Source: Escherichia coli
GTDB lineage: Bacteria > Pseudomonadota > Gammaproteobacteria > Enterobacterales > Enterobacteriaceae
NCBI RefSeq assembly: GCF_001677475.2
Contig: NZ_CP015229.1
Length of the DNA stretch: 64,000 nt
Reading direction: 5' to 3' (one strand)
How positions within the stretch are numbered: position 1 is the stretch's first letter; each line of letters begins with the position of its first letter. The notes below the pieces were generated by a model, which saw nothing but the letters and a program-made list of their open reading frames with translations, was not told where the DNA came from and did not search any database. Of this stretch, positions 13,734-44,631 are shown in pieces. Made by a program: the position numbers and the translations under genes.

Positions 13734-15143
13734 TTAGACGCTGTAGTACAGCTCAAACTCTACCGGATGCGGAGTCATACGCACGCGGTCATCTTCTTCG
13801 CGACGCAGAGCGATGTACGCATCGATCGCTTCATCCGTGAACACGCCACCGGCTTTCAGGAACTCGCGATCCAGATCCAGTTCGTTCAGTGCTTCTTCCA
13901 GAGAGCCTGCAACCTGTGGGATCTCTTTCGCTTCTTCTGGCGGCAGGTCATACAGGTTTTTGTCCATGGCTTCGCCCGGATGGATCTTGTTCTTGATACC
14001 ATCAAGACCGGCCATCAGCAGGGCAGCAAAGCACAGGTACGGGTTAGCCGCCGGGTCCGGGAAACGTACTTCGATACGACGTGCTTTCGGAGAAGAAACC
14101 ACCGGAATACGGATAGACGCAGAACGGTTACGCGCAGAGTAAGCCAGCATTACCGGTGCTTCGTAGCCCGGGACCAGACGCTTGTAAGAGTTGGTGGTCG
14201 GGTTTGCCAGGGCGTTAATCGCTTTAGCGTGTTTGATTACGCCGCCAATGTAGTACAGCGCCTGCTCAGACAGACCTGCGTATTTATCGCCCGCGAACAG
14301 GTTAACGCCGTTTTTAGACAGTGACATGTGGCAGTGCATACCGGAGCCGTTATCACCGAACATCGGTTTTGGCATAAAGGTCGCAGTTTTACCGAAGCGG
14401 TGCGCTACGTTGTGCACAACATATTTGTAGATCTGAATTTCGTCAGCTTTTTTGGTCATGGTATTGAAGCGGGTAGCCACTTCGTTCTGACCAGCAGTCG
14501 CTACTTCGTGGTGATGGGCTTCAACCACCAGACCCATCTGTTCCATCACCAGACACATTTCAGAACGAATATCCTGAGCAGAGTCTACCGGTGGAACCGG
14601 GAAGTAACCGCCTTTCACTGCCGGACGGTGACCTTTGTTACCACCTTCGTATTGGGTGGAGGAGTTCCATGCGCCTTCGATATCGTCGATAGCAACGTGG
14701 GAACCGGAGATAGATGATCCGAAACGGATGTCATCGAACAGGAAGAATTCAGGTTCTGGCCCGAACAGTACGGTGTCGGCAATGCCAGTGGAACGCAGGT
14801 AATCTTCGGCGCGCTTCGCAATAGAGCGCGGGTCACGGTCATAGCCTTGCAGGGTGCCAGGTTCAAGGATGTCGCAACGGATAATCAGGGTAGAGTCGGC
14901 GAAGAACGGGTCAATCACTGCGGTGGATGCGTCTGGCATCAGCACCATGTCGGATTCGTTAATGCCTTTCCAGCCGCCAATCGAGGAGCCGTCAAACATT
15001 TTGCCTTCTTCGAAGAATTCAGCATTCACCTGATGAGCAGGGATAGTGACGTGCTGTTCTTTACCTTTGGTATCGGTGAAGCGCAAATCAACAAACTTCA
15101 CTTCGTGCTCGTTCAGCATCGTCAGTACGTGTTCAGCGGACAT
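13734..15143 (-). CDS. glnA: Glutamine synthetase
   Basis: 469 aa, [22 protein letters not shown]... Contains the adenylylation-site region NLYDLPPEE. Confidence 0.99.
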
Positions 15144-19355: not shown

Positions 19356-20621
19356 ATGCTCACGAAAAAGAAATGGGCGTTATTTAGTCTATTAACACTG
19401 TGTGGCGGTACAATTTATAAATTACCGTCGCTGAAAGATGCGTTTTATATCCCGATGCAGGAATATTTCCATTTGACCAATGGTCAAATTGGTAATGCTA
19501 TGTCGGTAAACTCATTTGTCACCACAGTGGGCTTTTTTCTGTCTATTTATTTTGCCGATAAACTACCGCGCAGATACACCATGTCACTCTCACTCATTGC
19601 GACAGGATTACTGGGTGTTTATTTGACGACAATGCCGGGGTATTGGGGCATCCTCTTTGTCTGGGCGCTATTTGGCGTTACTTGCGACATGATGAACTGG
19701 CCGGTCTTGCTCAAGTCGGTAAGTCGATTGGGCAATAGCGAACAACAAGGTCGGTTGTTTGGCTTCTTCGAAACAGGGCGTGGCATTGTCGATACCGTGG
19801 TGGCATTTTCTGCGTTGGCAGTATTTACCTGGTTTGGCAGTGGCTTATTGGGTTTTAAAGCAGGCATCTGGTTCTATTCCCTTATTGTGATTGCCGTAGG
19901 CATTATTATTTTCTTTGTCCTGAATGACAAAGAAGAGGCACCGTCCGTTGAGGTGAAAAAAGAAGACGGAGCATCGCAAAACACCAGTATGACCTCGGTG
20001 CTGAGAGACAAAACCATCTGGCTTATCGCTTTCAACGTCTTCTTCGTTTACGCGGTTTACTGTGGCCTGACATTCTTCATTCCATTCCTGAAAAACATCT
20101 ATCTATTGCCCGTTGCGTTGGTGGGGGCTTACGGCATCATTAACCAATATTGTCTGAAAATGATTGGAGGACCGATTGGTGGCATGATTTCAGATAAGAT
20201 CCTGAAATCGCCGAGTAAATATCTATGCTACACCTTTATCATCAGTACCGCTGCGCTCGTACTGTTGATTATGCTGCCGCACGAAAGTATGCCGGTCTAT
20301 TTAGGGATGGCATGTACATTAGGCTTTGGCGCGATAGTCTTTACACAGCGAGCCGTATTTTTTGCACCTATCGGCGAAGCAAAAATTGCTGAAAATAAAA
20401 CAGGCGCGGCGATGGCGTTGGGTAGCTTTATTGGTTACGCCCCGGCGATGTTCTGCTTCAGTCTGTATGGCTACATTCTGGATTTAAATCCGGGGATTAT
20501 TGGCTACAAAATCGTGTTTGGCATTATGGCCTGCTTCGCATTCTGTGGTGCGGTGGTTTCCGTAATGCTGGTTAAGCGTATTAGCCAACGTAAGAAAGAG
20601 ATGCTGGCGGCTGAAGCTTAA
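19356..20621 (+). CDS. yihN: MFS transporter YihN
   Basis: 421 aa, about 12 hydrophobic helices. K-12 synteny. Confidence 0.9.
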   Translation: MLTKKKWALFSLLTLCGGTIYKLPSLKDAFYIPMQEYFHLTNGQIGNAMSVNSFVTTVGFFLSIYFADKLPRRYTMSLSLIATGLLGVYLTTMPGYWGILFVWALFGVTCDMMNWPVLLKSVSRLGNSEQQGRLFGFFETGRGIVDTVVAFSALAVFTWFGSGLLGFKAGIWFYSLIVIAVGIIIFFVLNDKEEAPSVEVKKEDGASQNTSMTSVLRDKTIWLIAFNVFFVYAVYCGLTFFIPFLKNIYLLPVALVGAYGIINQYCLKMIGGPIGGMISDKILKSPSKYLCYTFIISTAALVLLIMLPHESMPVYLGMACTLGFGAIVFTQRAVFFAPIGEAKIAENKTGAAMALGSFIGYAPAMFCFSLYGYILDLNPGIIGYKIVFGIMACFAFCGAVVSVMLVKRISQRKKEMLAAEA

Positions 20622-20680
20622 TTAATGGCCGGATGTGCTTAATCCGGCCAACGAAAACCGTATCAACCGAAGTTTCAATT

Positions 20681-21469
20681 TCAGGATACTTCTTGCTCAG
20701 CAACCACCAGTTCAACATTCTCTTCACTTAACAACTGGCAGAAAGAATTGGGAGGCGGGGCATCAGTAAAAAAAGCCCTGACATTCCGTGCATTGCCAAT
20801 TGAAACGGCAGCAGACGCGGCAAACTTCGTATGATCGGCCACTAACAATGTATTCCGCGCATGTTTAATCATCGTTCTTGCGACTAACGCTTCATTGACA
20901 TCAAATTCCAGTAGGGTGCCGTCATGTTCAATGGCACCTATACTGGTGATTAAATAATCTGCGCGGAAGCCTTCAATAAAATCCACGGCTCCTGGGCCGA
21001 TAATCCCGCCGTTATGAGCGCGTAAAGTGCCTCCCGGCACCATCACTTCAATATCCTGATTCTTATAAAGAATCTGTGCCACACGTAGGCTGTTAGTGAT
21101 AATGCGTAAATCACGACGGTTGAGTAATGCCCTGGCAACGGCTTCTACGGTTGTACCGATGGTGATAAAGACGGTACAGCGTTCGGGAAGGTAATCGGCG
21201 ACTGCCTCAGCGATCGCCCGTTTCTCGGCGGTGAGCGAAAGTTCCCGTTGCTCAAAAGCGGTATTCATGACGCTGGAGACGCGCCCGGCCCCTCCATGAT
21301 GACGGGTGATCAACCCCTGCTCACTGAGTTTTCGGATATCCCGGCGCACGGTTTGCGTTGAAACATCCAGCAGTTGTGCCAGTTCTTCAATATTCATATA
21401 ACCGCGTTCTGCGATTAGATGAACGAGTTGGTCATGGCGTGGATTACCTGTCACTTCGATGATACTCAT
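20681..21469 (-). CDS. DeoR-family repressor, YihW/CsqR-like (diverged homologue)
   Basis: 262 aa. HTH segment VSTQTVRRDIRKLSEQGLITRHHGG and a DeoR C-terminal sugar-phosphate sensor domain. Collinear with K-12 CsqR as I recall it, but with substitutions throughout. Confidence 0.85.
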   Translation of the reverse strand: MSIIEVTGNPRHDQLVHLIAERGYMNIEELAQLLDVSTQTVRRDIRKLSEQGLITRHHGGAGRVSSVMNTAFEQRELSLTAEKRAIAEAVADYLPERCTVFITIGTTVEAVARALLNRRDLRIITNSLRVAQILYKNQDIEVMVPGGTLRAHNGGIIGPGAVDFIEGFRADYLITSIGAIEHDGTLLEFDVNEALVARTMIKHARNTLLVADHTKFAASAAVSIGNARNVRAFFTDAPPPNSFCQLLSEENVELVVAEQEVS

Positions 21470-21508
21470 GAATACTCCCTTGCCCCTCCTCGGTATATGT
21501 TTACCATT

Positions 21509-22405
21509 TTACGCATAAAGTGACAAAAATGATTCGGTTTGCTCACGATTAGGAATGCCGGCCCGACCGCCAGGCTGGGTACATTTCATCGCGGCAACCG
21601 CACTGGCAAAACGAATAGCCTCTTTTGTTGGCATTTTTTCTGCCAACGCTACCGCGAGTGCGCCGTGAAAAACATCGCCTGCTCCAGTGGTATCAACCAC
21701 ATTGACAGAAAATGCCTCCTGTTGACACAAATGATCATCTTCAATCCACAACGATCCTTCAGAACCCAGCGTAACATACACTTTACCTGCTGTTTGTGTC
21801 GTTGCCTGGAACAAACCTTCTTCAGGTGACTGCAGGCCAGTCATGCGTTTCAGCCCCGGTGTTGAGAACACGGCGTGATCGGCAAGCGCGACAAGTGGAG
21901 AAATATCCTGCGGTGTCATATCGGCGTCTAAAAGCGTTGTCACCCCCGCAAGGCGCGCTAGCGAGAATGCTTTTTCAGTACCGCTATGCCAGCGAACATC
22001 GGCCAGAATCAGATCATAACGAGAGAAATCGATCGCTTCTAACCATTCGGCATCAGTACCGAGATCGGGACTTGGATAATTAACGATAATCCGTTCGCCA
22101 TGCTGATCAACGAGGATCGCTGATTGCGACGAACGGGCGTTAGGATATCGGCGGCAAAATGCGGTATTGACGCCCCAACCCTCAAGTTCTGCAAGTAAGG
22201 TATTTCCACAACTGTCATCGCCGACGCGACCGATGAAATCAACCTCCACGCCAAGCTTTGCGATTGCAACAGCGGCTGTTGCTGCCGGGCCGCCACCAAT
22301 CTCAAGATAATGATTTGCCTGATATTTCCCGCCGCCATCCGGCAGAGTGAGCAAAGAATAAATCCTGTCCTGAACTGTGATACCCACGCATGCAATTTTT
22401 GTCAT
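21509..22405 (-). CDS. PfkB-family kinase, YihV-like (6-deoxy-6-sulfofructose kinase homologue)
   Basis: Track ORF trimmed to ATG 22405 ([11 protein letters not shown]..., AGGA upstream), giving 298 aa. Motifs [11 protein letters not shown] and [14 protein letters not shown]. Confidence 0.85.
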
Positions 22406-22577
22406 ATTTGTCTTGTCCTGTTTAATTTTGTCGTCTTTGGTCAATTTAAATGACACAAATGATCAAATTAGTGATGTGTGTCGTGTTTTTGAACATAAAT
22501 TACAAATATGCTCAAAAACAGACGAAAACGAATTTTCAATTGTCATTATTTTGTCAATGTCAGACAGGAGAGTATTC
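22406..22577. promoter_or_regulatory. AT-rich divergent control region between the kinase/regulator and reductase/aldolase operons
   Basis: Inverted repeat TGTTTTTGA (22484-22492) / TCAAAAACA (22512-22520). Three TGTCA direct repeats at 22541-22562. No protein-like coding. Confidence 0.5.
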
Positions 22578-23456
22578 ATGGCAACCATTGCATTTCTCGG
22601 GCTGGGGCAGATGGGTAGCCCAATGGCTAACAATCTATTGCGAAAAGGGCATTCATTGCAGGTATTTGATGTCAATGCACAGGCCGTCGATGCGCTAGTT
22701 ACGCAGGGGGCCACTGCGGCACAAACCCCAGCGGAAGCGGCAGCAGGCGCTGAATTTATCATCACTATGCTTCCCAATGGTGACATTGTTCGACAGGTTC
22801 TGTTGGGGGAAAAAGGCGTCTGTGAGGCTGTTTCATCTGACGCGTTATTGATTGATATGTCGACTATTCATCCCTTACAGACCGATGCATTAATACGGGA
22901 GTTACAAGAAAAAGGCATCAGTATGATGGACGCCCCCGTGGGCAGAACATCCGTGAATGCGATTGATGGCACATTGCTGATTTTAGCGGGTGGCACTGAT
23001 GAGCAGATTGCGCGTGCACGCCCGATTCTCATGTGCATGGGTAATGAGCTGGTCGAGGCTGGCGGCCCAGGAATGGGGATCCGCGTGAAGCTAATTAACA
23101 ACTATATGAGCATTGCGCTTAATGCGCTGTCCTCCGAGGCCGCTGTGTTATGTGAGTCACTGGGATTAAATCTTGATGTCGCAATTAAGGTGATGAGTGG
23201 TACGGCAGCAGGGAAAGGACATTTTACGACCACCTGGCCTGGCAAAGTGCTGAAAGGCGATCTTTCACCCGCCTTCATGGTGGATCTGGCGTTGAAAGAT
23301 CTGCGTATTGCAGTTGACGTCGCTCGGGAGACGGGGGCACCGCTCAATATGGGGATTGCAGCAGAAAGTTATTACGCCGCAGCAAGTCAAGACGGCAAAG
23401 GGCGGCAGGACTGGAGCGCCCTGCTAAATCAGGTTCGCCAGCAGGCTGGTCTTTAA
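22578..23456 (+). CDS. NAD(P)-dependent beta-hydroxyacid dehydrogenase, YihU-like (sulfolactaldehyde reductase homologue)
   Basis: Start moved to ATG 22578 ([26 protein letters not shown] upstream), giving 292 aa. Rossmann GxGxxG motif. 3-hydroxyisobutyrate-dehydrogenase family. Confidence 0.85.
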
Positions 23457-23480
23457 TTTTATCTATTAACAGGAGTTTCT

Positions 23481-24368
23481 ATGTCATCCCACTTCACCCC
23501 ATTTACGCTGAAAGATATCTCCCGCCCAGGTGGTGGATTCGCCATGTTAGCTGTCGATCAGCGTGAGGCCATGCGCCTGATGTTTGCGGCAGCAGGGCAG
23601 CCCAAACCCATCGCCGACAGTGTACTCACCGATTTTAAAGTTGCCGCGACCCGAATCCTTTCTCCTTATGCTTCTGCCGTTCTGGCGGATAAACAATTTT
23701 GTCTTGAGCAAATAGTCGAGCAGGGCGCTGTTGCTAATTCTTGCGGCCTGATTGTCGCTGCCGATCTTTTTATCCCAGGTAATGGCATCCCGGTTGATAG
23801 CGTTGAAATAGATATGTCCGTCGACCCGCATAAAGCCCGTGAAATGGGGGCTAAGGCAATGAAATTACTTGTACTCTGGCGTGAAGATGAACCCGCAGAG
23901 GAACGTCTGGCAATGGTTGATAAATTTGTTCGTCGCTGCCGTAGTGCCGGACTGGTTAGCATTATTGAACCTGTGGTGCGTCCACCTCGTCGCGGTTGGG
24001 ACTTTGATCGTGAAAGCGCCATTGCCGCGGCCGCCGCAGAGCTTGGTGGAACAGAGGCTGATCTTTACAAAGCCGAGATGCCATTAGGGGGCAAAGGCGA
24101 TGAAAAAACCTTACTTGCCGCCTGTCAGCAACTTAACGATCAGATGAAGATGCCGTGGGTAATTCTTTCTTCTGGCGTTGATGCCGATATTTTTGGCCGT
24201 GCAGTAAGTATTGCCATGAAAGGTGGGGCGTCGGGCTTCCTGGCTGGACGAGCGGTTTGGGCGTCGGTTGTTGGTGCACAAGATCCACAAACTATGCTGC
24301 GCGATGTCTCCGTTCCACGCTTGCAACGGCTGGCTGAAATTGTCGATGAAGGTATCGCGCAACGCTAA
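23481..24368 (+). CDS. Class I aldolase, YihT-like (sulfofructose-phosphate aldolase / LacD family)
   Basis: 295 aa. Long collinear blocks shared with K-12 YihT as recalled: [69 protein letters not shown]. Confidence 0.85.
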
Positions 24369-24400
24369 TCCCCTATGGATATCGATTCTGGAGAATAACA

Positions 24401-25411
24401 ATGGATAAAAGTACCCAGGTTTTATTTTCAGATATTGGGAAAGTCACCACTCAATATGTTGAAGTACCACACCAGGAACTTAAACCGCACGAAGTGCGGA
24501 TTGCGCCTGTGTTCTATGGGATATGCGGTTCGGATCTGCATGTTCTGAAAGGCGGTCATCCGTTTGCCAAACCACCTGTCGTCCCCGGTCATGAAATTGC
24601 AGCGCGCGTTGCGGAAGTTGGCAGCGACGTTAAAAATGTACAGCCGGGCGATCATGTTGTGGTCGATCCCATCATGGCTTGCATGGAATGCCGAGCCTGC
24701 AAAGCAGGACGTTTTAATCTTTGTGAACCACCGCAGGTTGCTGGTTTTCGCGCACCGGGCTTTGCTCGCTCACAACACATTGTTCCTGCGCGTAATTGCC
24801 ATGTCGCACCAGCCTCTTTACCGCTAAAAGTGTTAGCCTTTGCCGAACCGGCGGCTTGTGCTCGTCACTGCGTTAACCGAATGCCGAAAGCTTCTCTGGA
24901 AAGCGTACTGGTGATTGGTGCCGGAACGATAGGCTTATCCATCGTGCAGGCACTGCGCATTATGGGGGCAGGTAAGATTACCGTGATTGAACCTGACGCT
25001 GCCAAACGCGCGCTGGCGTTAAAGCTGGGCGCAGCAGAAGTTTGGGCACCAGGTGAGCTGGCCGCAGATGTGCGATTTACGGGGGCGATTGATGTCGTTG
25101 CAGCGCAGGCCACGCTTAACGATGCATGTACCCGTGTATATGCCGGAGGCACCGTCGTGTGCATGGGCGTACCAAGTGGGCCGCGTGAAATACCATTACC
25201 TATGATGCAACGTTTCGAGCGTGACTTGCTCAACTCTGGCATGTACATCCCTGAAGATTTCGATGCTGTTATCGAATGGCTGGCGGATGGGCGGTTTGAT
25301 ACCAGTGAACTGGTTACCGATTTATTTGCCATTGAGGATGCAGCGGCGGCATTCGAACGCGCGCAGCAAAATGACTCCATAAAGGTCATGCTGCAATTTG
25401 CGCCGGAATGA
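24401..25411 (+). CDS. Zinc-dependent medium-chain dehydrogenase/reductase (polyol/threonine dehydrogenase-like)
   Basis: 336 aa. Catalytic Zn ligands in GICGSDLH and PGHE. Structural Zn site CMECRACKAGRFNLC. NAD-binding fold VIGAGTIGL. Confidence 0.85.
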   Translation: MDKSTQVLFSDIGKVTTQYVEVPHQELKPHEVRIAPVFYGICGSDLHVLKGGHPFAKPPVVPGHEIAARVAEVGSDVKNVQPGDHVVVDPIMACMECRACKAGRFNLCEPPQVAGFRAPGFARSQHIVPARNCHVAPASLPLKVLAFAEPAACARHCVNRMPKASLESVLVIGAGTIGLSIVQALRIMGAGKITVIEPDAAKRALALKLGAAEVWAPGELAADVRFTGAIDVVAAQATLNDACTRVYAGGTVVCMGVPSGPREIPLPMMQRFERDLLNSGMYIPEDFDAVIEWLADGRFDTSELVTDLFAIEDAAAAFERAQQNDSIKVMLQFAPE

Positions 25412-25480
25412 TTTTCTAAATCTCTGTCTGGCGCTGCGTCACGTCAGCGCCACCCTACAACAATTAAAAAGGACACTGCG

Positions 25481-26914
25481 ATGAGTCAAATCACCAGTCC
25501 TGCAACTTATTCAATTAGTCGGCCACAGGACGTAATTGATATTGTTAATAAGAACTCTGCAATCAACACCAGTATCGGCGTTATTTTTATTGCTTTGGGC
25601 GGCATATTGATTGATGCCTACCAGGCGGCGATGGTGGGGTTTGGTAATAAATACATTGCCGCTCAATTCGGCATTTCGCCGGGTCTTGCTGCAACCGTCA
25701 ATGCATCAGTATTAATCGCCGCGTTAATTGGCGGTTTATTAGCGAACCGAGTAATAAACCGCTTTGGGCAAAAGCGGGCATTTATTATTGGCATGGGGCT
25801 GTGCACCATCGGTGCTGCAGCGGTAGCTATTGCTCCCAGTATCTGGTGGGTGCTGGTGTGCCGCGTCATCATGGGCTTTGGTTTAGGCATCGACTTCCCT
25901 TTGGCAACCAATGCCGTGGCAGAGCTTCGTGGTTCAACGTCGAAGAAAACCGGAACGTCGGTCAACCTCTGGCAAATGGCCTGGTATGTTTCGACAACCG
26001 TTGTTTATTTGGTGCTTTTGCCGCTGCTTCTGTCGGGTATCGCTGAAGAACAATTGTGGCGTTACGGAATATTCATCGGAGCTATTTTTGCAGTCATCTT
26101 CATGATTTTGCGTTACTTCTTTATTGGTGAATCCGCAATGTGGGCTGCACGCGTCGGGCGTTACCAGGAAGCGTGCGACATTCTGGGAAAACGTTATGGT
26201 GTTCAGGCTCGCGTTGCGGCATCGGGTACAACAGAAGCGAAATTCTCGGAAAAAGCAGAGAATAAATACAGTGGTGGATATGGCATCTTATTTAATGATC
26301 GTTACCGCAAACGCACCATTCTTGGTTGTGTCGTGGCAACCATGCAGGCGTGGCAATATAACGCCGTAGGTGTTTATCTTCCTCTTACGTTGGCGGGAAT
26401 AATAAGTGGCGGGCTTACTGGCGCGTTGACCGGTTCTGCCGTCGTGAATGCCCTTTGTGGGGTGACAGGTGGGATGATCGGCTCGTTTATTCTCCAACGA
26501 CTGGGTACTCGCCGACAGTCGATGTATGGATTTGCTGTTGTGACCTTAGCATTGCTGTCGTTAGGCGCACTGGCAACGACTAATCCCTGGCTGTCTTTAG
26601 GGTTATTGGGATCAATTATTTTCTTCCATTCAGCGGGTCCTGGTGGGCTGGGCATGACCATTGCCACACTCTCTTATCCTCCCGCTATTCGTCCTACTGG
26701 GGTCGGATTTGCCCGCGCTATTATGCGCACAGGGGCAATTGCAGGACTCATTTTCTGGCCGATGCTGTGGGGTACGTTGAAAACTGAAGCGTTTTATTGG
26801 TTGGCAATTGTGCCATTCCTGGGGTTCCTGACCTGCGTATTGATTAATTGGGAACCTTTGGGAGCAAATGTTGATGCTGAGGATGCAGAGGTTCTGGCTG
26901 AATTGAAGAAATAA
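25481..26914 (+). CDS. MFS transporter, sugar-porter-like
   Basis: 477 aa, about 12 TM helices. Loop 2-3 motif LANRVINRFGQKR, RVIMGFGLG, and GESAMWAA resembling the PESPRW motif. Confidence 0.8.
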   Translation: MSQITSPATYSISRPQDVIDIVNKNSAINTSIGVIFIALGGILIDAYQAAMVGFGNKYIAAQFGISPGLAATVNASVLIAALIGGLLANRVINRFGQKRAFIIGMGLCTIGAAAVAIAPSIWWVLVCRVIMGFGLGIDFPLATNAVAELRGSTSKKTGTSVNLWQMAWYVSTTVVYLVLLPLLLSGIAEEQLWRYGIFIGAIFAVIFMILRYFFIGESAMWAARVGRYQEACDILGKRYGVQARVAASGTTEAKFSEKAENKYSGGYGILFNDRYRKRTILGCVVATMQAWQYNAVGVYLPLTLAGIISGGLTGALTGSAVVNALCGVTGGMIGSFILQRLGTRRQSMYGFAVVTLALLSLGALATTNPWLSLGLLGSIIFFHSAGPGGLGMTIATLSYPPAIRPTGVGFARAIMRTGAIAGLIFWPMLWGTLKTEAFYWLAIVPFLGFLTCVLINWEPLGANVDAEDAEVLAELKK

Positions 26915-27012
26915 ATTAATGCGCATCGGCTTAAACCGATGCGCATTAATTCAAACTGCCCACGTTTAGTGGTTCGTATCCCAGATTTCTCGCCTACCAG
27001 GAGAGGAAAATT

Positions 27013-28362
27013 ATGTCTGAAAAGTTACCCGCACCGCGTGAAGGGCTTTCCGGTAAAGCCATGAGACGTGTCGTTATGGGCAGTTTCGCAGGCGCGTTAA
27101 TGGAATGGTATGACTTCTTTATTTTTGGCACGGCAGCAGGACTGGTATTTGCACCGCTGTTTTATCCAGACAGCGATCCTTTTATAGGTCTTATAGCTTC
27201 CTTTGCGACCTTTGGTGTCGGTTTTCTGACTCGTCCTTTAGGTGGCATCGTCTTTGGTCATTTTGGCGATAAAATCGGGCGAAAAATAACACTTATCTGG
27301 ACGCTGGCTATTGTCGGTTGCTCCACATTTTTGATTGGTTTTATTCCGACGTATCAGGAAATTGGCATTTGGGCACCGCTTGTATTAATGGTGCTGCGTT
27401 TGATTCAGGGCTTTGGTCTTGGTGGCGAGTACGGCGGAGCGGCATTGATGACCATAGAATCAGCGCCCGAATCCCGACGCGGATTTTTAGGTTCACTCCC
27501 GCAAACGGCTGCGTCTGTGGGTATTATGCTGGCAACCGGTATTTTTGCTCTCTGTAACCATTTTCTTACTTCGGAGCAGTTTCTCTCCTGGGGATGGCGC
27601 ATTCCGTTTTGGCTTTCTGCGGTGATGTTGATCGTTGGGCTGTTTATCCGCCTGCATACCGAAGAAACGCTGGATTTTCAAAAGCAAAAAACGACGAATA
27701 ATAAAGAAAAGTCCGTTCCTCCGTTGATTGAATTATTCAAAAAACATCCACGAAATATTTTATTGGCACTGGGTGCGAGGCTGGCGGAAAGTGTCTCCTC
27801 TAATATTATTAACGCCTTTGGTATTGTCTATATTTCCAGCCAATTAGCATTGTCGCGAGATATTCCCCTGACGGGTATGTTGATTGCCTCGGCGATCGGT
27901 ATTTTCAGTTGTCCATTGGTTGGATGGTTATCAGATCGTATAGGTCAAAAAAGTCTGTATTTGTCGGGAGCAGGATTTTGTGTCCTGTTCGCGTTTCCTT
28001 TCTTCTTATTACTGGATAGCAAAAGTACGCTCATCATCTGGTGCAGTATGATCCTCGGCTACAACTTAGGTCCGACGATGATGTTTGCCGTGCAGCCAAC
28101 ACTTTTCACCCGCATGTTCGGTACCAAAGTACGATATACCGGCCTTTCTTTTGCTTATCAATTTTCCGCGATTCTTGGCGGACTAAGCCCCCTTATCGCC
28201 TCAAGTTTGCTGGCGCTAGGGGGAGGAAAACCGTGGTATGTCGCTCTGTTTTTATTTGCTGTCTCAGTTCTTTCCTTTGTTTGCGTCTGGCTGATTGAGC
28301 CGACCGATGAACAAGAAACCGCTTCTTACCGCTACATCAGGGAACAATCTCATGAAAACTGA
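27013..28362 (+). CDS. MFS transporter, metabolite:H+ symporter (MHS; ProP/KgtP/ShiA-like) family
   Basis: 449 aa. Motifs RPLGGIVFGHFGDKIGRK and RLIQGFGLGGEYGGA, typical of the MHS family. Confidence 0.8.
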   Translation: MSEKLPAPREGLSGKAMRRVVMGSFAGALMEWYDFFIFGTAAGLVFAPLFYPDSDPFIGLIASFATFGVGFLTRPLGGIVFGHFGDKIGRKITLIWTLAIVGCSTFLIGFIPTYQEIGIWAPLVLMVLRLIQGFGLGGEYGGAALMTIESAPESRRGFLGSLPQTAASVGIMLATGIFALCNHFLTSEQFLSWGWRIPFWLSAVMLIVGLFIRLHTEETLDFQKQKTTNNKEKSVPPLIELFKKHPRNILLALGARLAESVSSNIINAFGIVYISSQLALSRDIPLTGMLIASAIGIFSCPLVGWLSDRIGQKSLYLSGAGFCVLFAFPFFLLLDSKSTLIIWCSMILGYNLGPTMMFAVQPTLFTRMFGTKVRYTGLSFAYQFSAILGGLSPLIASSLLALGGGKPWYVALFLFAVSVLSFVCVWLIEPTDEQETASYRYIREQSHEN

Positions 28363-29239
28363 ACGAAAAAACGAGCATTACCTGGCGCTACAACAGGCGT
28401 TTGACGCGCCATGGCCTGGGCCTGTAGGAGAGTTAGTGACGCTGGAAAAAGGCAATATTCACCTGCAGATTTATCCGCATGATGGTGCCAGGATAACCTC
28501 GTTAAAGGCATTTGGTTCTGAAGTATTACGCCAATGGCAGCCGCAGCGCAGAGCTTTTCAGTATGGCTGTTTCCCAATGGTGCCGTGGGCAGGGCGACTG
28601 GGGAATGCGACGCTGAATGCTGGTGGGCAATGTTATTCTTTACCCGCCAATAAACCACCACATGCGTTGCATGGTATGGCTTGTTACTCAACGTGGGAAA
28701 TCATCGACAAAACAATAGATTCCCTGACTTTACGTATGCCCCTGGCTTCACCGTGGCCCTGGCAAGGGGAAGTGATTCAGACTTTTTTGCTGGAGAACGA
28801 TGCGCTGGTTTTGCAACTGGAAATCCATTCACATACCGATACATTCCCGGCCTCTGCAGGCTGGCATCCGTGGTTTGCGAAAAAGCTGACTCCGCAAAAT
28901 ACAGAATCGTTGCAGGTGCTTTTTGATGCGGACTGGCAAGAGGAAGCGGGTAGTGATGAACTGCCAACTGGAAATCGCATCTCTCCTCAAGCTGGTCCCT
29001 GGGATGACTGTTTTGGTTTTTATGACGGGGTGAAGGTTAAGTTACTGTGGCCTGGTAAACTCACGATGACCATGACCTCTTCTGCAAACAGTCTGGTGGT
29101 ATTTGATAAACAGCCCGATGCCACCTGTGTTAATCCGCTTACTCAGGCACCTAACGCAATAAATCTAACGCCGGAATTGGTGACATCAGATAAGCCGCTG
29201 GTCATCGAAACTCGTTGGCAATTTACACCTGAATCTTAA
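28352..29239 (+). CDS. Aldose 1-epimerase (mutarotase) family protein, YihR-like
   Basis: Track ORF 28295-29239. Preferred start is ATG 28352 (MKTERKNEHY..., 295 aa), overlapping the upstream stop by 11 nt. Motifs PPHALHG and SAGWHPWF. Confidence 0.7.
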   Translation: MKTERKNEHYLALQQAFDAPWPGPVGELVTLEKGNIHLQIYPHDGARITSLKAFGSEVLRQWQPQRRAFQYGCFPMVPWAGRLGNATLNAGGQCYSLPANKPPHALHGMACYSTWEIIDKTIDSLTLRMPLASPWPWQGEVIQTFLLENDALVLQLEIHSHTDTFPASAGWHPWFAKKLTPQNTESLQVLFDADWQEEAGSDELPTGNRISPQAGPWDDCFGFYDGVKVKLLWPGKLTMTMTSSANSLVVFDKQPDATCVNPLTQAPNAINLTPELVTSDKPLVIETRWQFTPES

Positions 29240-29249
29240 CCATTCATCT

Positions 29250-29290
29250 ATTGCGAAAAAGCCAGTGAAATTACTCTGCTTTTTCGCAAT
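29250..29290 (+). terminator. Hairpin (possible terminator) at the right edge of the variant cassette
   Basis: 13-bp perfect inverted repeat ATTGCGAAAAAGC / GCTTTTTCGCAAT. No long T-run after it. Confidence 0.4.
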
Positions 29291-29379
29291 CAGCATCACA
29301 AGATTACCCTTATTGCCACATAGCCAAACCCATCCTTTCCCGCTACAGTTAATTTCTTGTGGCGCGAAAGGAGGCAAAA

Positions 29380-29979
29380 ATGCTCTATATCTTTGATTTA
29401 GGTAATGTGATTGTCGATATCGACTTTAACCGTGTGCTGGGAGCCTGGAGCGATTTAACGCGTATTCCGCTGGCATCTCTTAAGAAGAGTTTTCATATGG
29501 GGGAGGCGTTTCATCAGCATGAGCGTGGGGAAATTAGCGACGAAGCGTTCGCAGAGGCGCTGTGTCATGAGATGGCTCTACCGCTAAGCTACGAGCAGTT
29601 CTCCCACGGTTGGCAGGCAGTGTTTGTCGCGCTGCGCCCGGAAGTGATCGCCATCATGCATAAACTGCGTGAGCAGGGGCATCGCGTGGTGGTGCTTTCC
29701 AATACCAACCGCCTGCATACCACCTTCTGGCCGGAAGAATACCCGGAAATTCGTGATGCTGCTGACCATATCTATCTGTCGCAAGATCTGGGGATGCGCA
29801 AACCTGAAGCACGAATTTACCAGCATGTTTTGCAGGCGGAAGGTTTTTCACCCAGCGATACGGTCTTTTTCGACGATAACGCCGATAATATAGAAGGAGC
29901 CAATCAGCTGGGCATTACCAGCATTCTGGTGAAAGATAAAACCACCATCCCGGACTATTTCGCGAAGGTGTTATGCTAA
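29380..29979 (+). CDS. yihX: HAD-family alpha-D-glucose-1-phosphate phosphatase YihX
   Basis: 199 aa from ATG 29380 (AAGGAGG upstream). Begins [13 protein letters not shown] with the DxD nucleophile motif. Confidence 0.95.
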
Positions 29980-32300: not shown

Positions 32301-32680
32301 TTCAGGTCATTTACATTAGCCTCTGACTATTCCGGTTATATTGAATAAGAACTCTATTAATTTTTATTCTTCGTTGGCACCATACGTGTCTTGCTACATC
32401 ACTGTTCAGGAGCATTTAAATATTATTTGTAGAGGTGAGTGGCAATTATCGCCGATAATGCTTAATTCATCATCTTACTTCAGGTTTGAGCGATTTTTGA
32501 TAGTCAAAACCCCCTATGGTGCCATACTTTTCTCATAAATATTTTTAAAATCTATAGCTAACTAACATTATGCAAAGATAATGGGCTGGCACCATTGTCA
32601 GTATCATTCATTTACTGCTTCTAGATGTTGTAAATAATTATGTTGTATGTTTGCTCTTAAACCGTGGGAAGGAGGCTGTA

Positions 32681-44018: not shown

Positions 44019-44045
44019 ACGTTTTTGTTTTTGCTGTGAAATACA

Positions 44046-44079
44046 AGGTCGGATGTGGCGTAAACGCCTTATCCGACCT
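44046..44079. repeat. REP element
   Basis: AGGTCGGATGTGGCGTAAACGCCTTATCCGACCT. Confidence 0.7.
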
Positions 44080-44119
44080 ACACGTCATTAAGCCGTGTCA
44101 GCTGTGGATCCGACAACAT

Positions 44120-44631
44120 TCACCCCTCGCGAAGTAACGCCATAAACCCTTCATACCCCGTTAGCCCGACAATAGTTTCCGCCGAATGCTGACACAGGAC
44201 GCTGGCAAGATAGCTGAATATTTTTAACTCGTGACGCGCATCGGCGGCGGCGCAGGCGATCAAGACATGGTTAATGACTTCGTTATTCACCTCAACTGGT
44301 TGGGCGAGGGTAATAAAAAATCCACGAAAACGTCGCTCCTGTTCGCTCCAGCAATTTCGCCATCGCTGGCTTTCCAGTCAATGGCCTGCGCTTTGCGGGC
44401 GAACAACACAAAGGGCTGTTTTACGCAGGCGCTTTTACCGTGCGGCACGGCGATGCCGGAACCAAATCCCGTGGAGTGCATTTTTTCGCGCAGCAGCAGG
44501 GTTTGCAGGAACTGGTGTTAGTCGGTGATAAAACCGTTTTGTAACGCCATTGTCGCCAACTGCTTCAGAATGGAATAAGCGCCATTGCCCTGAATATTCA
44601 GGTCAATACAGCTTGCAGTAAGAGCTGCCAT
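44120..44631 (-). pseudogene. frvA: Disrupted PTS EIIA gene: frvA 5' part carrying an in-frame TAA, joined out of frame to an EIIA-type 3' tail (possibly the frvR 3' end)
   Basis: MAALTASCIDLNIQGNGAYSILKQLATMALQNGFITD-TAA(44518-44520)-HQFLQTLLLREKMHSTGFGSGIAVPHGKSACVKQPFVLFARKAQAIDWKASDGE. The frame then ends at 44287. A different frame continues FFITLAQPVEVNNEVINHVLIACAAAADARHELKIFSYLASVL...LLREG* to 44120. Confidence 0.75.

Follow-up and report, generated by a model that had tools for sequence, protein, structure and literature searches.

Escherichia coli is the textbook organism of the Embden–Meyerhof–Parnas type of sulfosugar breakdown (sulfo-EMP pathway), and the degradation of sulfoquinovose (SQ) by gut Enterobacteriaceae supplies 2,3-dihydroxypropane-1-sulfonate (DHPS) to sulfite-respiring bacteria, thereby contributing to the formation of hydrogen sulfide. 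Here, we are dealing with the yih locus in a 64,000-nucleotide stretch of an E. coli chromosome (RefSeq assembly GCF_001677475.2, contig NZ_CP015229.1; hereafter, the window), where the sulfo-EMP genes known from strain K-12 are replaced by an inverted and diverged cassette of eight genes between yihN and yihX.

That an inverted alternative cassette can occupy the yih site has been published before. A “long” and a “short” yih cassette are known to share one site in E. coli and Shigella (Kaznadzey 2025, PMC12608037); they are mutually exclusive and both dispersed across the E. coli phylogeny. The short cassette, which is carried by Nissle 1917 and enriched in pathogens, has been described as a truncated four-gene form (yihTUVW) that has lost SQ catabolism, with homologs of yihO, yihP, yihQ, yihS and ompL absent elsewhere in the genomes of its carriers, and it was concluded that it is probably out of SQ degradation (PMC12608037). 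In a 2026 method paper (PMC13427033), the cassette pair is the strongest negative gene-gene association of the E. coli pangenome; “unique genetic content” is mentioned there and function left unassigned. A 2010 synteny survey lists CFT073 c4828–c4830 (“shikimate metabolism”) in uropathogenic-associated gene sets; these are probably the unique genes of the cassette. None of the three studies assigns a role to the dehydrogenase, the two transporters of the major facilitator superfamily (MFS) or the epimerase-like gene of the cassette.

What appears to be new is that the short cassette is an eight-gene, dehydrogenase-type module which occurs across bacterial classes and is older than the genus; a literature search for a description of such a module found none. 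We read the short allele as a complete, selected, divergent operon pair for a dehydrogenase-type sulfoglycolysis that would be fed by the oxidation of a sulfonated polyol, and assign to this overall reading a probability of roughly 0.55. That the segment is an intact, ancient and selected alternative sulfosugar module, in which the steps from sulfofructose to DHPS are kept, we consider highly likely.

An eight-gene module at the yih site and in other bacteria

The window segment corresponds to the published short cassette in its site, in the reversed yihT/U/V/W homologs, in the absence of yihO/P/Q/R/S, and in the identity of its regulator to CsqR (71.5%, compared with 72% as published). It is collinear with K-12 up to position 20672 and again from 29313. 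Both breakpoints (20672/20673 and 29312/29313) are clean, the left one lying just beyond the hairpin 3' of yihN and the right one 67 bp 5' of the yihX start codon, and the 8,640 bp between them (20673–29312) stand in for the 11,922-bp ompL-yihOPQRSTUVW segment of K-12. The initial annotation had recognized the right site, with bounds (20622–29379) from which the true breakpoints lie slightly further in. The gene order, strands and families it gave between yihN and yihX are borne out by the listing of open reading frames (ORFs) and by family scans, all segment ORFs being assigned to metabolism, transport or regulation; the eight cassette genes are also annotated in RefSeq for the near-identical E. 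coli strain D8.

The cassette recurs elsewhere. Sixteen other loci were inspected, up to 10 kb on each side, including those of Rhodopseudomonas palustris, Rhodovastum, Roseospira, S. marincola, Streptomyces rapamycinicus, Propionicimonas, Prauserella, Pseudomonas, Vibrio, Citrobacter (two species), Budvicia, Erwinia, Jejubacter and E. coli D8. All 16 combine the Zn-dependent dehydrogenase with a DeoR regulator, a PfkB kinase and an aldolase, and each includes one or both of the same MFS transporter types. Most also have a YihU-like reductase and the epimerase-like gene, the latter missing in the actinobacterial and Pseudomonas modules, and the MFS type encoded at 25481–26914 adjoins the dehydrogenase in 14 of the 16, being absent from L015 and L016. 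Homologs of YihS, YihQ, YihO/P or OmpL were found in none of the 16 loci over the stretch inspected. Among the matches listed, dehydrogenase homologs of 55–93% identity come from Enterobacterales and Vibrio, from Alphaproteobacteria (Rhodopseudomonas palustris, Rhodovastum, Roseospira, Telmatospirillum, Pleomorphomonas) and from Actinobacteria (Streptomyces, Propionicimonas), and remoter members (43–45%) from Pseudomonas, Prauserella and S. rapamycinicus. A profile search of genome contigs with the dehydrogenase alignment yielded, among the matches listed, mostly distant paralogs from the MDR superfamily (medium-chain dehydrogenases/reductases); the loci L008–L016 were informative. Since the module recurs in 16 other loci across Alpha- and Gammaproteobacteria and Actinobacteria, the short form is, judged by its gene content, a complete eight-gene module and not a truncation.

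Within this frame, individual enzymes are exchanged. Vibrio rhodolitus, Citrobacter sp. NCU1, Budvicia and Jejubacter possess a class II aldolase (PF01116) instead of the class I enzyme; the same non-orthologous displacement is documented among sulfofructosephosphate (SFP) aldolases (PMC10665668). In three loci (Jejubacter, S. rapamycinicus, Pseudomonas), an aldehyde dehydrogenase is found instead of the reductase, and the reductase and aldehyde dehydrogenase variants thus match the known DHPS-forming and sulfolactate-forming types of the sulfo-EMP pathway. A gene for a TauE/SafE exporter lies within the modules of S. rapamycinicus and Pseudomonas, and a SuyB-type (altronate-dehydratase) gene follows the Pseudomonas module; like the aldehyde dehydrogenase, these genes tie the module to sulfonates by separate lines. 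In Jejubacter calystegiae (L088) and S. rapamycinicus (L090), an enolase-superfamily gene (MR_MLE) and the aldehyde dehydrogenase gene replace reductase, second MFS transporter and epimerase-like protein.

The comparison with K-12 bears out the view that the shared proteins are homologous yet diverged along their whole length. Protein identities are 71.5% for CsqR, 66.7% for YihV, 72.3% for YihU and 66.7% for YihT, in contrast to the flanks, which, as had been claimed for yihN and yihX, read essentially like K-12 (YihN 99.05%, YihM 99.1%, YihX 100%, YihY 100%). At the nucleotide level, the core is 65–71% and the flanks are 98.4–99.0% identical to K-12. The proportion of synonymous differences (pS) in the shared core genes is 0.73–0.81 and hence saturated, with a nonsynonymous divergence (dN) of 0.21–0.31, compared with a synonymous divergence (dS) of 0.046–0.058 in yihM, yihN, yihX and yihY; near-identity of the shared genes with K-12 is thereby excluded.

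Four shared genes are indeed inverted relative to the conserved flanks, as initially described, which is the point in favour of the view that a K-12-like locus was inverted or rearranged recently and that its missing genes lie elsewhere. The low core identity and the saturated synonymous sites stand against such an event. So does the gene content: searches by tblastn with OmpL, YihO, YihP, YihQ and YihS, for which no counterpart had been seen, gave zero matches across the 64-kb window, by which their relocation nearby is ruled out, and in short-cassette genomes they are absent elsewhere, too, according to PMC12608037. A simple inversion is thus excluded by core divergence and by the content of the window, and the chance left to a recent rearrangement is next to nil. 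A mobile island was also considered and ruled out; the segment contains no tRNA, insertion sequence (IS) element, integrase or flanking repeats, and its composition is ordinary (GC content 0.44–0.54, comparable to the flanks).

In Citrobacter murliniae, too, yihN and yihX enclose the eight cassette genes, orientated as in the window. Gene by gene, 72–83% of the nucleotides are identical to the window in the cassette and 76–85% in the flanking core genes; because cassette divergence equals flank divergence, the presence of the cassette at this site would be as old as the split of Escherichia and Citrobacter. Between the two species, dN of the cassette is 0.05–0.19, and dN/dS is at most 0.10 in the 8 of 12 genes with estimable dS, the remaining genes being saturated; by this measure, the cassette is under purifying selection. 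Within E. coli, cassette identity to strain D8 is 98.0–99.8%, matching the diversity of the flanks. Salmonella enterica has the K-12-type cassette, with csqR adjoining yihX. Its cassette proteins are mostly 85–92% identical to those of K-12 (YihO 80%, YihR 54.5%) and its flanking proteins 89% (YihX) and 94% (YihY), while the window proteins are 66–72% identical to their Salmonella counterparts, which equals their distance from K-12. With Salmonella carrying the K-12 type and the window equidistant from both, the two alleles should predate the genera. In the aldolase tree, the YihT proteins of K-12 and Salmonella (88% mutual identity) form one branch, which lies inside the diversity of the dehydrogenase-module aldolases. 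The window aldolase is closer to the enzymes of Roseospira and R. palustris (74–76% identity) than to K-12 YihT (70%).

From these comparisons, the yihX-proximal site harbours the two cassette types as old alleles that antedate the divergence of Escherichia from Citrobacter and Salmonella, a result that agrees with the initial proposal of an old alternative cassette at a fixed site as opposed to a recent rearrangement. Xenologous replacement, as it was put then, is one wording for this history; an ancient polymorphism shuffled by recombination in the flanks is equally compatible with it. The jump of nucleotide divergence at the breakpoints, from ~1% to ~33%, is the trace expected of allele exchange through flank recombination, and it fits a swapping of the cassettes within E. 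coli by way of the near-identical flanks.

Among 5,426 complete E. coli genomes, 1,325 (24%) have the window cassette and 3,879 the K-12 type; the remaining ~220 include a decayed state of the locus. In this third state, represented by strain Z1323HEC0399 (L002), the cassette is reduced to the 3' ends of the regulator and epimerase-like genes and 286 bp from the interior of the kinase gene.

In the published reading, the short cassette would be a truncated or degenerating remnant of the long one, without any role in sulfosugar metabolism and kept for regulatory or unrelated reasons. The lack of isomerase and glycosidase and the absence of induction by SQ (PMC12608037) speak for it, and the state found in Z1323HEC0399 demonstrates that decay at this locus does occur. 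Yet all eight genes of the window cassette are intact, with the low dN/dS ratios given above; the four genes that it has in addition to the shared core are part of a module that is maintained in three bacterial classes; the residues of the sulfonate pockets are fully kept (see below); and the equidistance of the core genes from K-12 and Salmonella implies that they were not derived from the long cassette within E. coli. A remnant is therefore regarded as very improbable.

Lower pathway, entry step and substrate

The sulfonate pockets of YihV, YihT and YihU have been defined by structures (Sharma 2021, PMC8006165). Of these residues, the kinase of the window keeps the K27-N109-R138 sulfonate triad together with D13, S95, D162 and D244, the aldolase keeps A26, K193 (Schiff base), S226, S227 and R253, and the reductase keeps R123, K171, N174 and S178. 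The best PDB matches of the aldolase are 7ag1 and 7ag7, both sulfofructosephosphate aldolase, and the reductase passes NF012005, the equivalog model for sulfolactaldehyde reductase, with 579 bits (cutoff 348). The pocket residues are likewise kept in the other gammaproteobacterial modules, and the aldolase pocket is conserved in all lineages. Given the conserved pockets and the NF012005 score, the lower pathway from sulfofructose to DHPS is very probably retained in the E. coli cassette. Of the hallmarks of the upper sulfo-EMP pathway, the YihS isomerase (PF07221) had no tblastn match in the window and no homolog in the inspected stretches of the other module loci, and the GH31 enzyme YihQ and the GPH transporters had no tblastn match in the window.

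The Zn-dependent dehydrogenase has no counterpart in the K-12 yih locus and stands where the isomerase would be. Its catalytic (C42, H64, E65, E149) and structural (C94, C97, C100, C108) Zn ligands are invariant in 23 family members. The Rossmann motif is GAGTIGL, and the acidic residue after β-2, E197, which is invariant or replaced by Asp, suggests a preference for nicotinamide adenine dinucleotide (NAD). The AlphaFold2 model (pLDDT 94.4) aligns with TM-scores of 0.88–0.91 to sorbitol, arabinitol, idonate and RspB dehydrogenases. The nearest solved relatives are polyol, aldonate and threonine dehydrogenases, the nearest structures being those of RspB, ketose reductase, sorbitol dehydrogenase, L-idonate 5-dehydrogenase, L-arabinitol 4-dehydrogenase, YdjJ, GatD and HpsP. 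Most of the near relatives oxidize the secondary hydroxyl group beside the terminal carbon, yielding a ketose or keto acid, and several of them take anionic substrates. RspB, which we take to be an L-gulonate 5-dehydrogenase converting L-gulonate into D-fructuronate, is the top sequence match and has the HPFAK motif in common with the window enzyme. The basic residues H53, R117 (loop GFRAPG), R160 and R271/R274 (QRFER) are invariant in the family and absent from RspB and ketose reductase, which fits an anionic substrate.

For the entry step, we tentatively favour the oxidation of a free sulfonated polyol at C2 to sulfofructose, at odds somewhat below even. A free reduced sulfosugar, in the simplest case 6-deoxy-6-sulfo-D-glucitol or an epimer, would be imported and oxidized at C2 by the Zn/NAD dehydrogenase, with sulfofructose as the product; the YihV-type kinase would form sulfofructose-1-phosphate, which the YihT-type aldolase would cleave into dihydroxyacetone phosphate (DHAP) and sulfolactaldehyde, and the YihU-type reductase would convert the latter into DHPS for export. 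The K-12 entry module (OmpL, YihO/P, YihQ, YihR, YihS) would thus be replaced by two anion-type MFS transporters, the mutarotase-like protein and the dehydrogenase, under a CsqR-type DeoR repressor acting at a conserved operator. The sulfo-hexitol might arise from host or microbial reduction of sulfoquinovose or sulfofructose. Such a route to DHAP and DHPS would be redox-balanced, since the reduced NAD (NADH) formed by the dehydrogenase is used by the sulfolactaldehyde reductase. The proposed C2 oxidation has parallels in RspB (L-gulonate to D-fructuronate) and GatD (galactitol-1-phosphate to tagatose-6-phosphate), and the route would extend the established rule that sulfonate mimics phosphate in sulfoglycolysis. 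On the import side, both MFS proteins are nearest to families of organic-anion:H+ symporters (AAHS-like and MHS/ShiA-like); the one encoded at 27013–28362 scores 407 bits on TIGR00883 and 410 bits on NF007414, in both cases under the cutoff. It is conceivable, if still short of an even chance, that the cassette represents an undescribed, dehydrogenase-entry branch of the sulfo-EMP pathway acting on a natural nutrient not yet recognized, such as a 6-deoxy-6-sulfo-hexitol.

Two other roles of the dehydrogenase were considered. A sulfolactaldehyde dehydrogenase is unlikely, given that every module also encodes a YihU-type reductase or an aldehyde dehydrogenase and that a similar enzyme, the Zn-MDR “threonine dehydrogenase” MDP0926266 of Paracoccus wurundjeri cluster 2, did not oxidize sulfolactaldehyde (Stewart 2025, PMC12421959). 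An SQ 1-dehydrogenase of an Entner–Doudoroff-type route was rejected, because the core module contains no lactonase, dehydratase or 2-keto-3,6-dideoxy-6-sulfogluconate (KDSG) aldolase, kinase and aldolase are of the ketose-1-phosphate type, and MR_MLE occurs in just two variants.

Several observations weigh against the oxidation of a sulfo-polyol. A full-text literature search for natural 6-deoxy-6-sulfo-hexitols under such names came back empty. The alphaproteobacterial and actinobacterial kinases and reductases fall into other subfamilies, with ~30% identity to YihV and YihU, and have neither the KRN triad nor N174/S178, so that the case for a sulfonated substrate in these lineages rests on the aldolase. 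The TauE gene is restricted to the remoter modules of S. rapamycinicus and Pseudomonas. A mutarotase-family gene in most modules argues for a cyclic hemiacetal or hemiketal at some point of the pathway, while an acyclic alditol would leave this gene unexplained. Finally, SQ does release the Nissle regulator from DNA in vitro, if weakly (PMC12608037).

The mutarotase argument is tempered by the protein itself. The label “YihR-like” in the initial annotation was too strong; the two proteins have a common Pfam family (27% identity over 164 residues), and the window protein is not a YihR ortholog. The general base of mutarotases is a Glu residue (E304 in GalM of L. lactis). Of the mutarotase active site, the Arg and the two His residues are kept (R82, H107 and H172, in the motifs PWAGR, HALHG and GWHPW), but the copies of E. 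coli, Citrobacter, Erwinia and Vibrio and, thus, all gammaproteobacterial ones have Asn (CVNPLT) at the position of the catalytic Glu, whereas Glu is retained in YihR and in every alphaproteobacterial homolog (copies across L004, L006, L008, L009, L011, L013 and L089). In addition, the gene is missing in actinobacteria and Pseudomonas. It is under purifying selection, with a dN/dS of 0.10 between E. coli and Citrobacter. In Salmonella, YihR (L093, 11246–12103) is an outlier in an otherwise 80–92% conserved long cassette, which suggests either a separate replacement or fast evolution of the mutarotase gene there.

Compared with CsqR, residues 1–75 of the regulator, comprising the helix-turn-helix domain, are 88% identical, the sensor domain 72% and the C-terminal tail 27%. 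A 29-bp block at 22495–22523, ATAAATTACAAATATGCTCAAAAACAGAC, hardly varies between K-12 and the alternative cassettes found in E. coli, Citrobacter and Erwinia, in contrast to the coding DNA with its ~66% identity. This agrees with published electrophoretic mobility shift assays (EMSA), in which both regulators bind both intergenic regions (PMC12608037), and suggests that both regulators use one operator while the effector has changed. Within the intergenic region lies the 15-mer TGACACAAATGATCA (22451–22465), which is repeated inside the kinase gene (21723–21737) and, as a weaker copy (80% match), at the kinase gene's 3' end, upstream of the regulator gene (21521–21535). Given that the U/V and V/W regions were the targets in the published EMSA, the 15-mer is a candidate for an operator half-site. 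The Nissle regulator binds DNA more weakly than CsqR and responds less to SQ, and the short-cassette genes of Nissle 1917 were not induced by SQ (PMC12608037). The four extra genes (K8943_RS13585–13600 by position) do not appear in the available part of the differential-expression tables of that study.

These data bear on the most obvious other substrate. Free SQ might still be degraded, with the dehydrogenase bypassing YihS by redox chemistry (SQ to sulfo-alditol to sulfofructose), either as a lone nicotinoprotein or together with a housekeeping aldose reductase, and with the mutarotase-like protein supplying the anomer or the open chain. SQ is by far the commonest sulfosugar, and the conservation of a mutarotase-family gene in most modules would be accounted for. 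The in vitro release of the Nissle regulator by SQ points the same way; besides, this regulator binds weakly at 37 °C, which means that expression could be constitutive, and Nissle was reported to grow like K-12 with SQ (PMC12608037). The growth medium, however, held 5% lysogeny broth (LB), for which reason the growth report says nothing on the use of SQ. The lack of induction by SQ in Nissle, the absence of an aldose reductase gene from the module and the Asn in place of the mutarotase Glu in E. coli all speak against it, as does the polyol-dehydrogenase clade itself, whose members oxidize the hydroxyl group beside the terminal carbon and are not known for isomerase activity. On balance, degradation of SQ by this detour is unlikely, albeit not negligible.

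Alternatively, the substrate could be a non-sulfonated anionic sugar or polyol, for instance an L-gulonate-like compound processed via fructuronate and its 1-phosphate to DHAP and tartronate semialdehyde and, from there, to glycerate. RspB is the best sequence-level structural homolog of the dehydrogenase, JGI names several family members “L-gulonate 5-dehydrogenase”, and the E. coli ydj cluster follows a similar logic. The missing sulfonate motifs of the alphaproteobacterial and actinobacterial kinases and reductases fit as well, with these reductases scoring about equally on the NCBIfam models of sulfolactaldehyde reductase and tartronate-semialdehyde reductase. For the E. coli cassette, however, the KRN triad, N174/S178 and the equivalog score indicate a sulfonate; in other genera, the module is associated with TauE and a SuyB-like gene; and the dehydrogenase is unlike RspB at its family-specific basic residues. 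A non-sulfonated substrate is thus quite improbable, and the oxidation of a sulfonated polyol remains our preferred entry step.

Layout of the locus and further observations in the window

The features of the cassette and its junctions are compiled in Table 1. The K-12 gene order given in the initial annotation agrees with the RefSeq annotation of MC1061. For the palindrome between the MFS genes, possible roles are those of an internal terminator, an attenuator or an element resembling repetitive extragenic palindromic (REP) sequences.

Table 1. Features of the alternative yih cassette and its flanks (positions in the window)
Feature	Position	Strand	Characteristics
yihN, left flank, MFS transporter	19356..20621	+	99.05% protein, 98.7% nucleotide identity to K-12; dS 0.046
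Left junction	20622..20672		K-12-like sequence 3' of yihN; hairpin GGCCGGATGTGCTTAATCCGGCC at 20627–20649
DeoR-family repressor, CsqR/YihW homolog, 262 aa	20681..21469	-	PF08220 and PF00455
PfkB kinase, YihV-type sulfofructose kinase homolog, 298 aa	21509..22405	-	66.7% identity to YihV
Divergent promoter/operator region	22406..22577		between kinase and reductase genes
YihU-type sulfolactaldehyde 3-reductase homolog, 292 aa	22578..23456	+	NF012005; 72.3% identity to YihU
Class I DeoC/LacD-family aldolase, YihT-type SFP aldolase homolog, 295 aa	23481..24368	+	66.7% identity to YihT
Zn-dependent medium-chain dehydrogenase, polyol-dehydrogenase clade, 336 aa	24401..25411	+	PF08240 and PF00107
MFS transporter, Sugar_tr / aromatic-acid:H+ symporter-like, 477 aa	25481..26914	+	family scans
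Near-perfect palindrome, 19-nt arms, 95% complementary	26912..26953		gap of 98 bp between the MFS genes
MFS transporter, metabolite:H+ symporter family, ShiA-like, 449 aa	27013..28362	+	TIGR00883 and NF007414, sub-cutoff
Aldose-1-epimerase-family protein, 295 aa	28352..29239	+	PF01263, 79 bits
Right junction	29240..29312		cassette-specific to 29312; K-12 collinearity from 29313 (TTGCCACATAGCC...)
yihX, right flank, glucose-1-phosphatase	29380..29979	+	100% protein, 99.0% nucleotide identity to K-12

Outside the cassette, the window differs from K-12 elsewhere, too. Between fabY and yiiE lies a ~2-kb segment (32745–34793) that K-12 lacks except for an annotated remnant of 117 bp; it is overlapped by an ORF of 614 aa (32651–34495, plus strand, TTG start, low GC of 0.36–0.42) without a Pfam match, and the D8 annotation of this segment gives a pseudogene and a “transposase”. 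A yiiF-like gene (35553–35849, plus strand) is followed by a PIN-domain gene (35843–36223, plus strand; 126 aa, PF01850 at 69.6 bits), a pair that looks like a toxin-antitoxin system of the VapBC type; the region 35858–36197 of the PIN gene does not align to K-12 or D8. At 44028–44356, the frv operon of K-12 and D8 is missing (frvR, frvX, frvB and part of frvA; ~4.2 kb), the junction 44355/44356 corresponding to positions 14328 and 18534 of the D8 locus (L092).

Significance and comparison with known systems

At stake is a cassette carried by 24% of complete E. coli genomes that the literature treats as truncated and inactive. If it encodes a working pathway for a different sulfosugar, this would point to an unrecognized organosulfonate nutrient in guts and soils, and surveys of sulfoglycolysis that score yihS or yihQ would overlook a whole class of degraders. 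The long/short polymorphism would then be a testable case of niche partitioning at one locus, predating the split of Escherichia, Citrobacter and Salmonella, and the two yih alleles an ancient, possibly balanced, niche polymorphism for two sulfosugars. Furthermore, a widespread orphan family of Zn dehydrogenases would receive a candidate function.

Among characterized Zn-MDR enzymes, RspB (4ilk), IdnD (6dkh), GatD (4a2c), sorbitol dehydrogenase (1pl6) and HpsP (8wwd) have the same fold (TM-score 0.84–0.91) and the Zn sites of the window enzyme. They are, however, 23–28% identical to it, and its family has invariant residues of its own (H53, R117, R160, R271 and R274); moreover, unlike these polyol and aldonate dehydrogenases, the family of the window enzyme is always found in the kinase-aldolase module. 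HpsP, as an (S)-DHPS dehydrogenase, does act on a sulfonated polyol. The ydj cluster of E. coli, for which carboxylated sugars have been proposed as substrates, comprises the DeoR regulator YdjF, the PfkB kinase YdjH, the class II aldolase YdjI, the Zn-MDR enzymes YdjJ and YdjL and MFS transporters. It likewise combines a dehydrogenase, a ketose-1-kinase and an aldolase giving DHAP with MFS transport and DeoR control, and YdjJ (5vm2) is a near structure; it differs in its substrates and in lacking the sulfonate-pocket residues and a YihU-type reductase.

In cluster 2 of Paracoccus wurundjeri, a Zn-MDR gene lies beside those for a PfkB kinase and a PF01791 aldolase, without an isomerase, in an organosulfonate locus, a likeness that is drawn by description. 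This organism degrades sulfofucose via an Entner–Doudoroff-type route, and the kinase and aldolase were not induced (PMC12421959). With the K-12 sulfo-EMP pathway (Denger 2014; PMC8006165), the window cassette has in common the YihV, YihT and YihU enzyme types with identical pocket residues, the CsqR-type repressor and the operator block. It lacks the porin, the GPH transporters, the sulfoquinovosidase and YihS of K-12, and adds the Zn dehydrogenase, two MFS transporters of other families and the divergent mutarotase-like protein. The published short cassette, finally, is the same object as the window segment; it was presented as a truncated four-gene form (PMC12608037), in contrast to the eight-gene, cross-class and pre-genus module described here.

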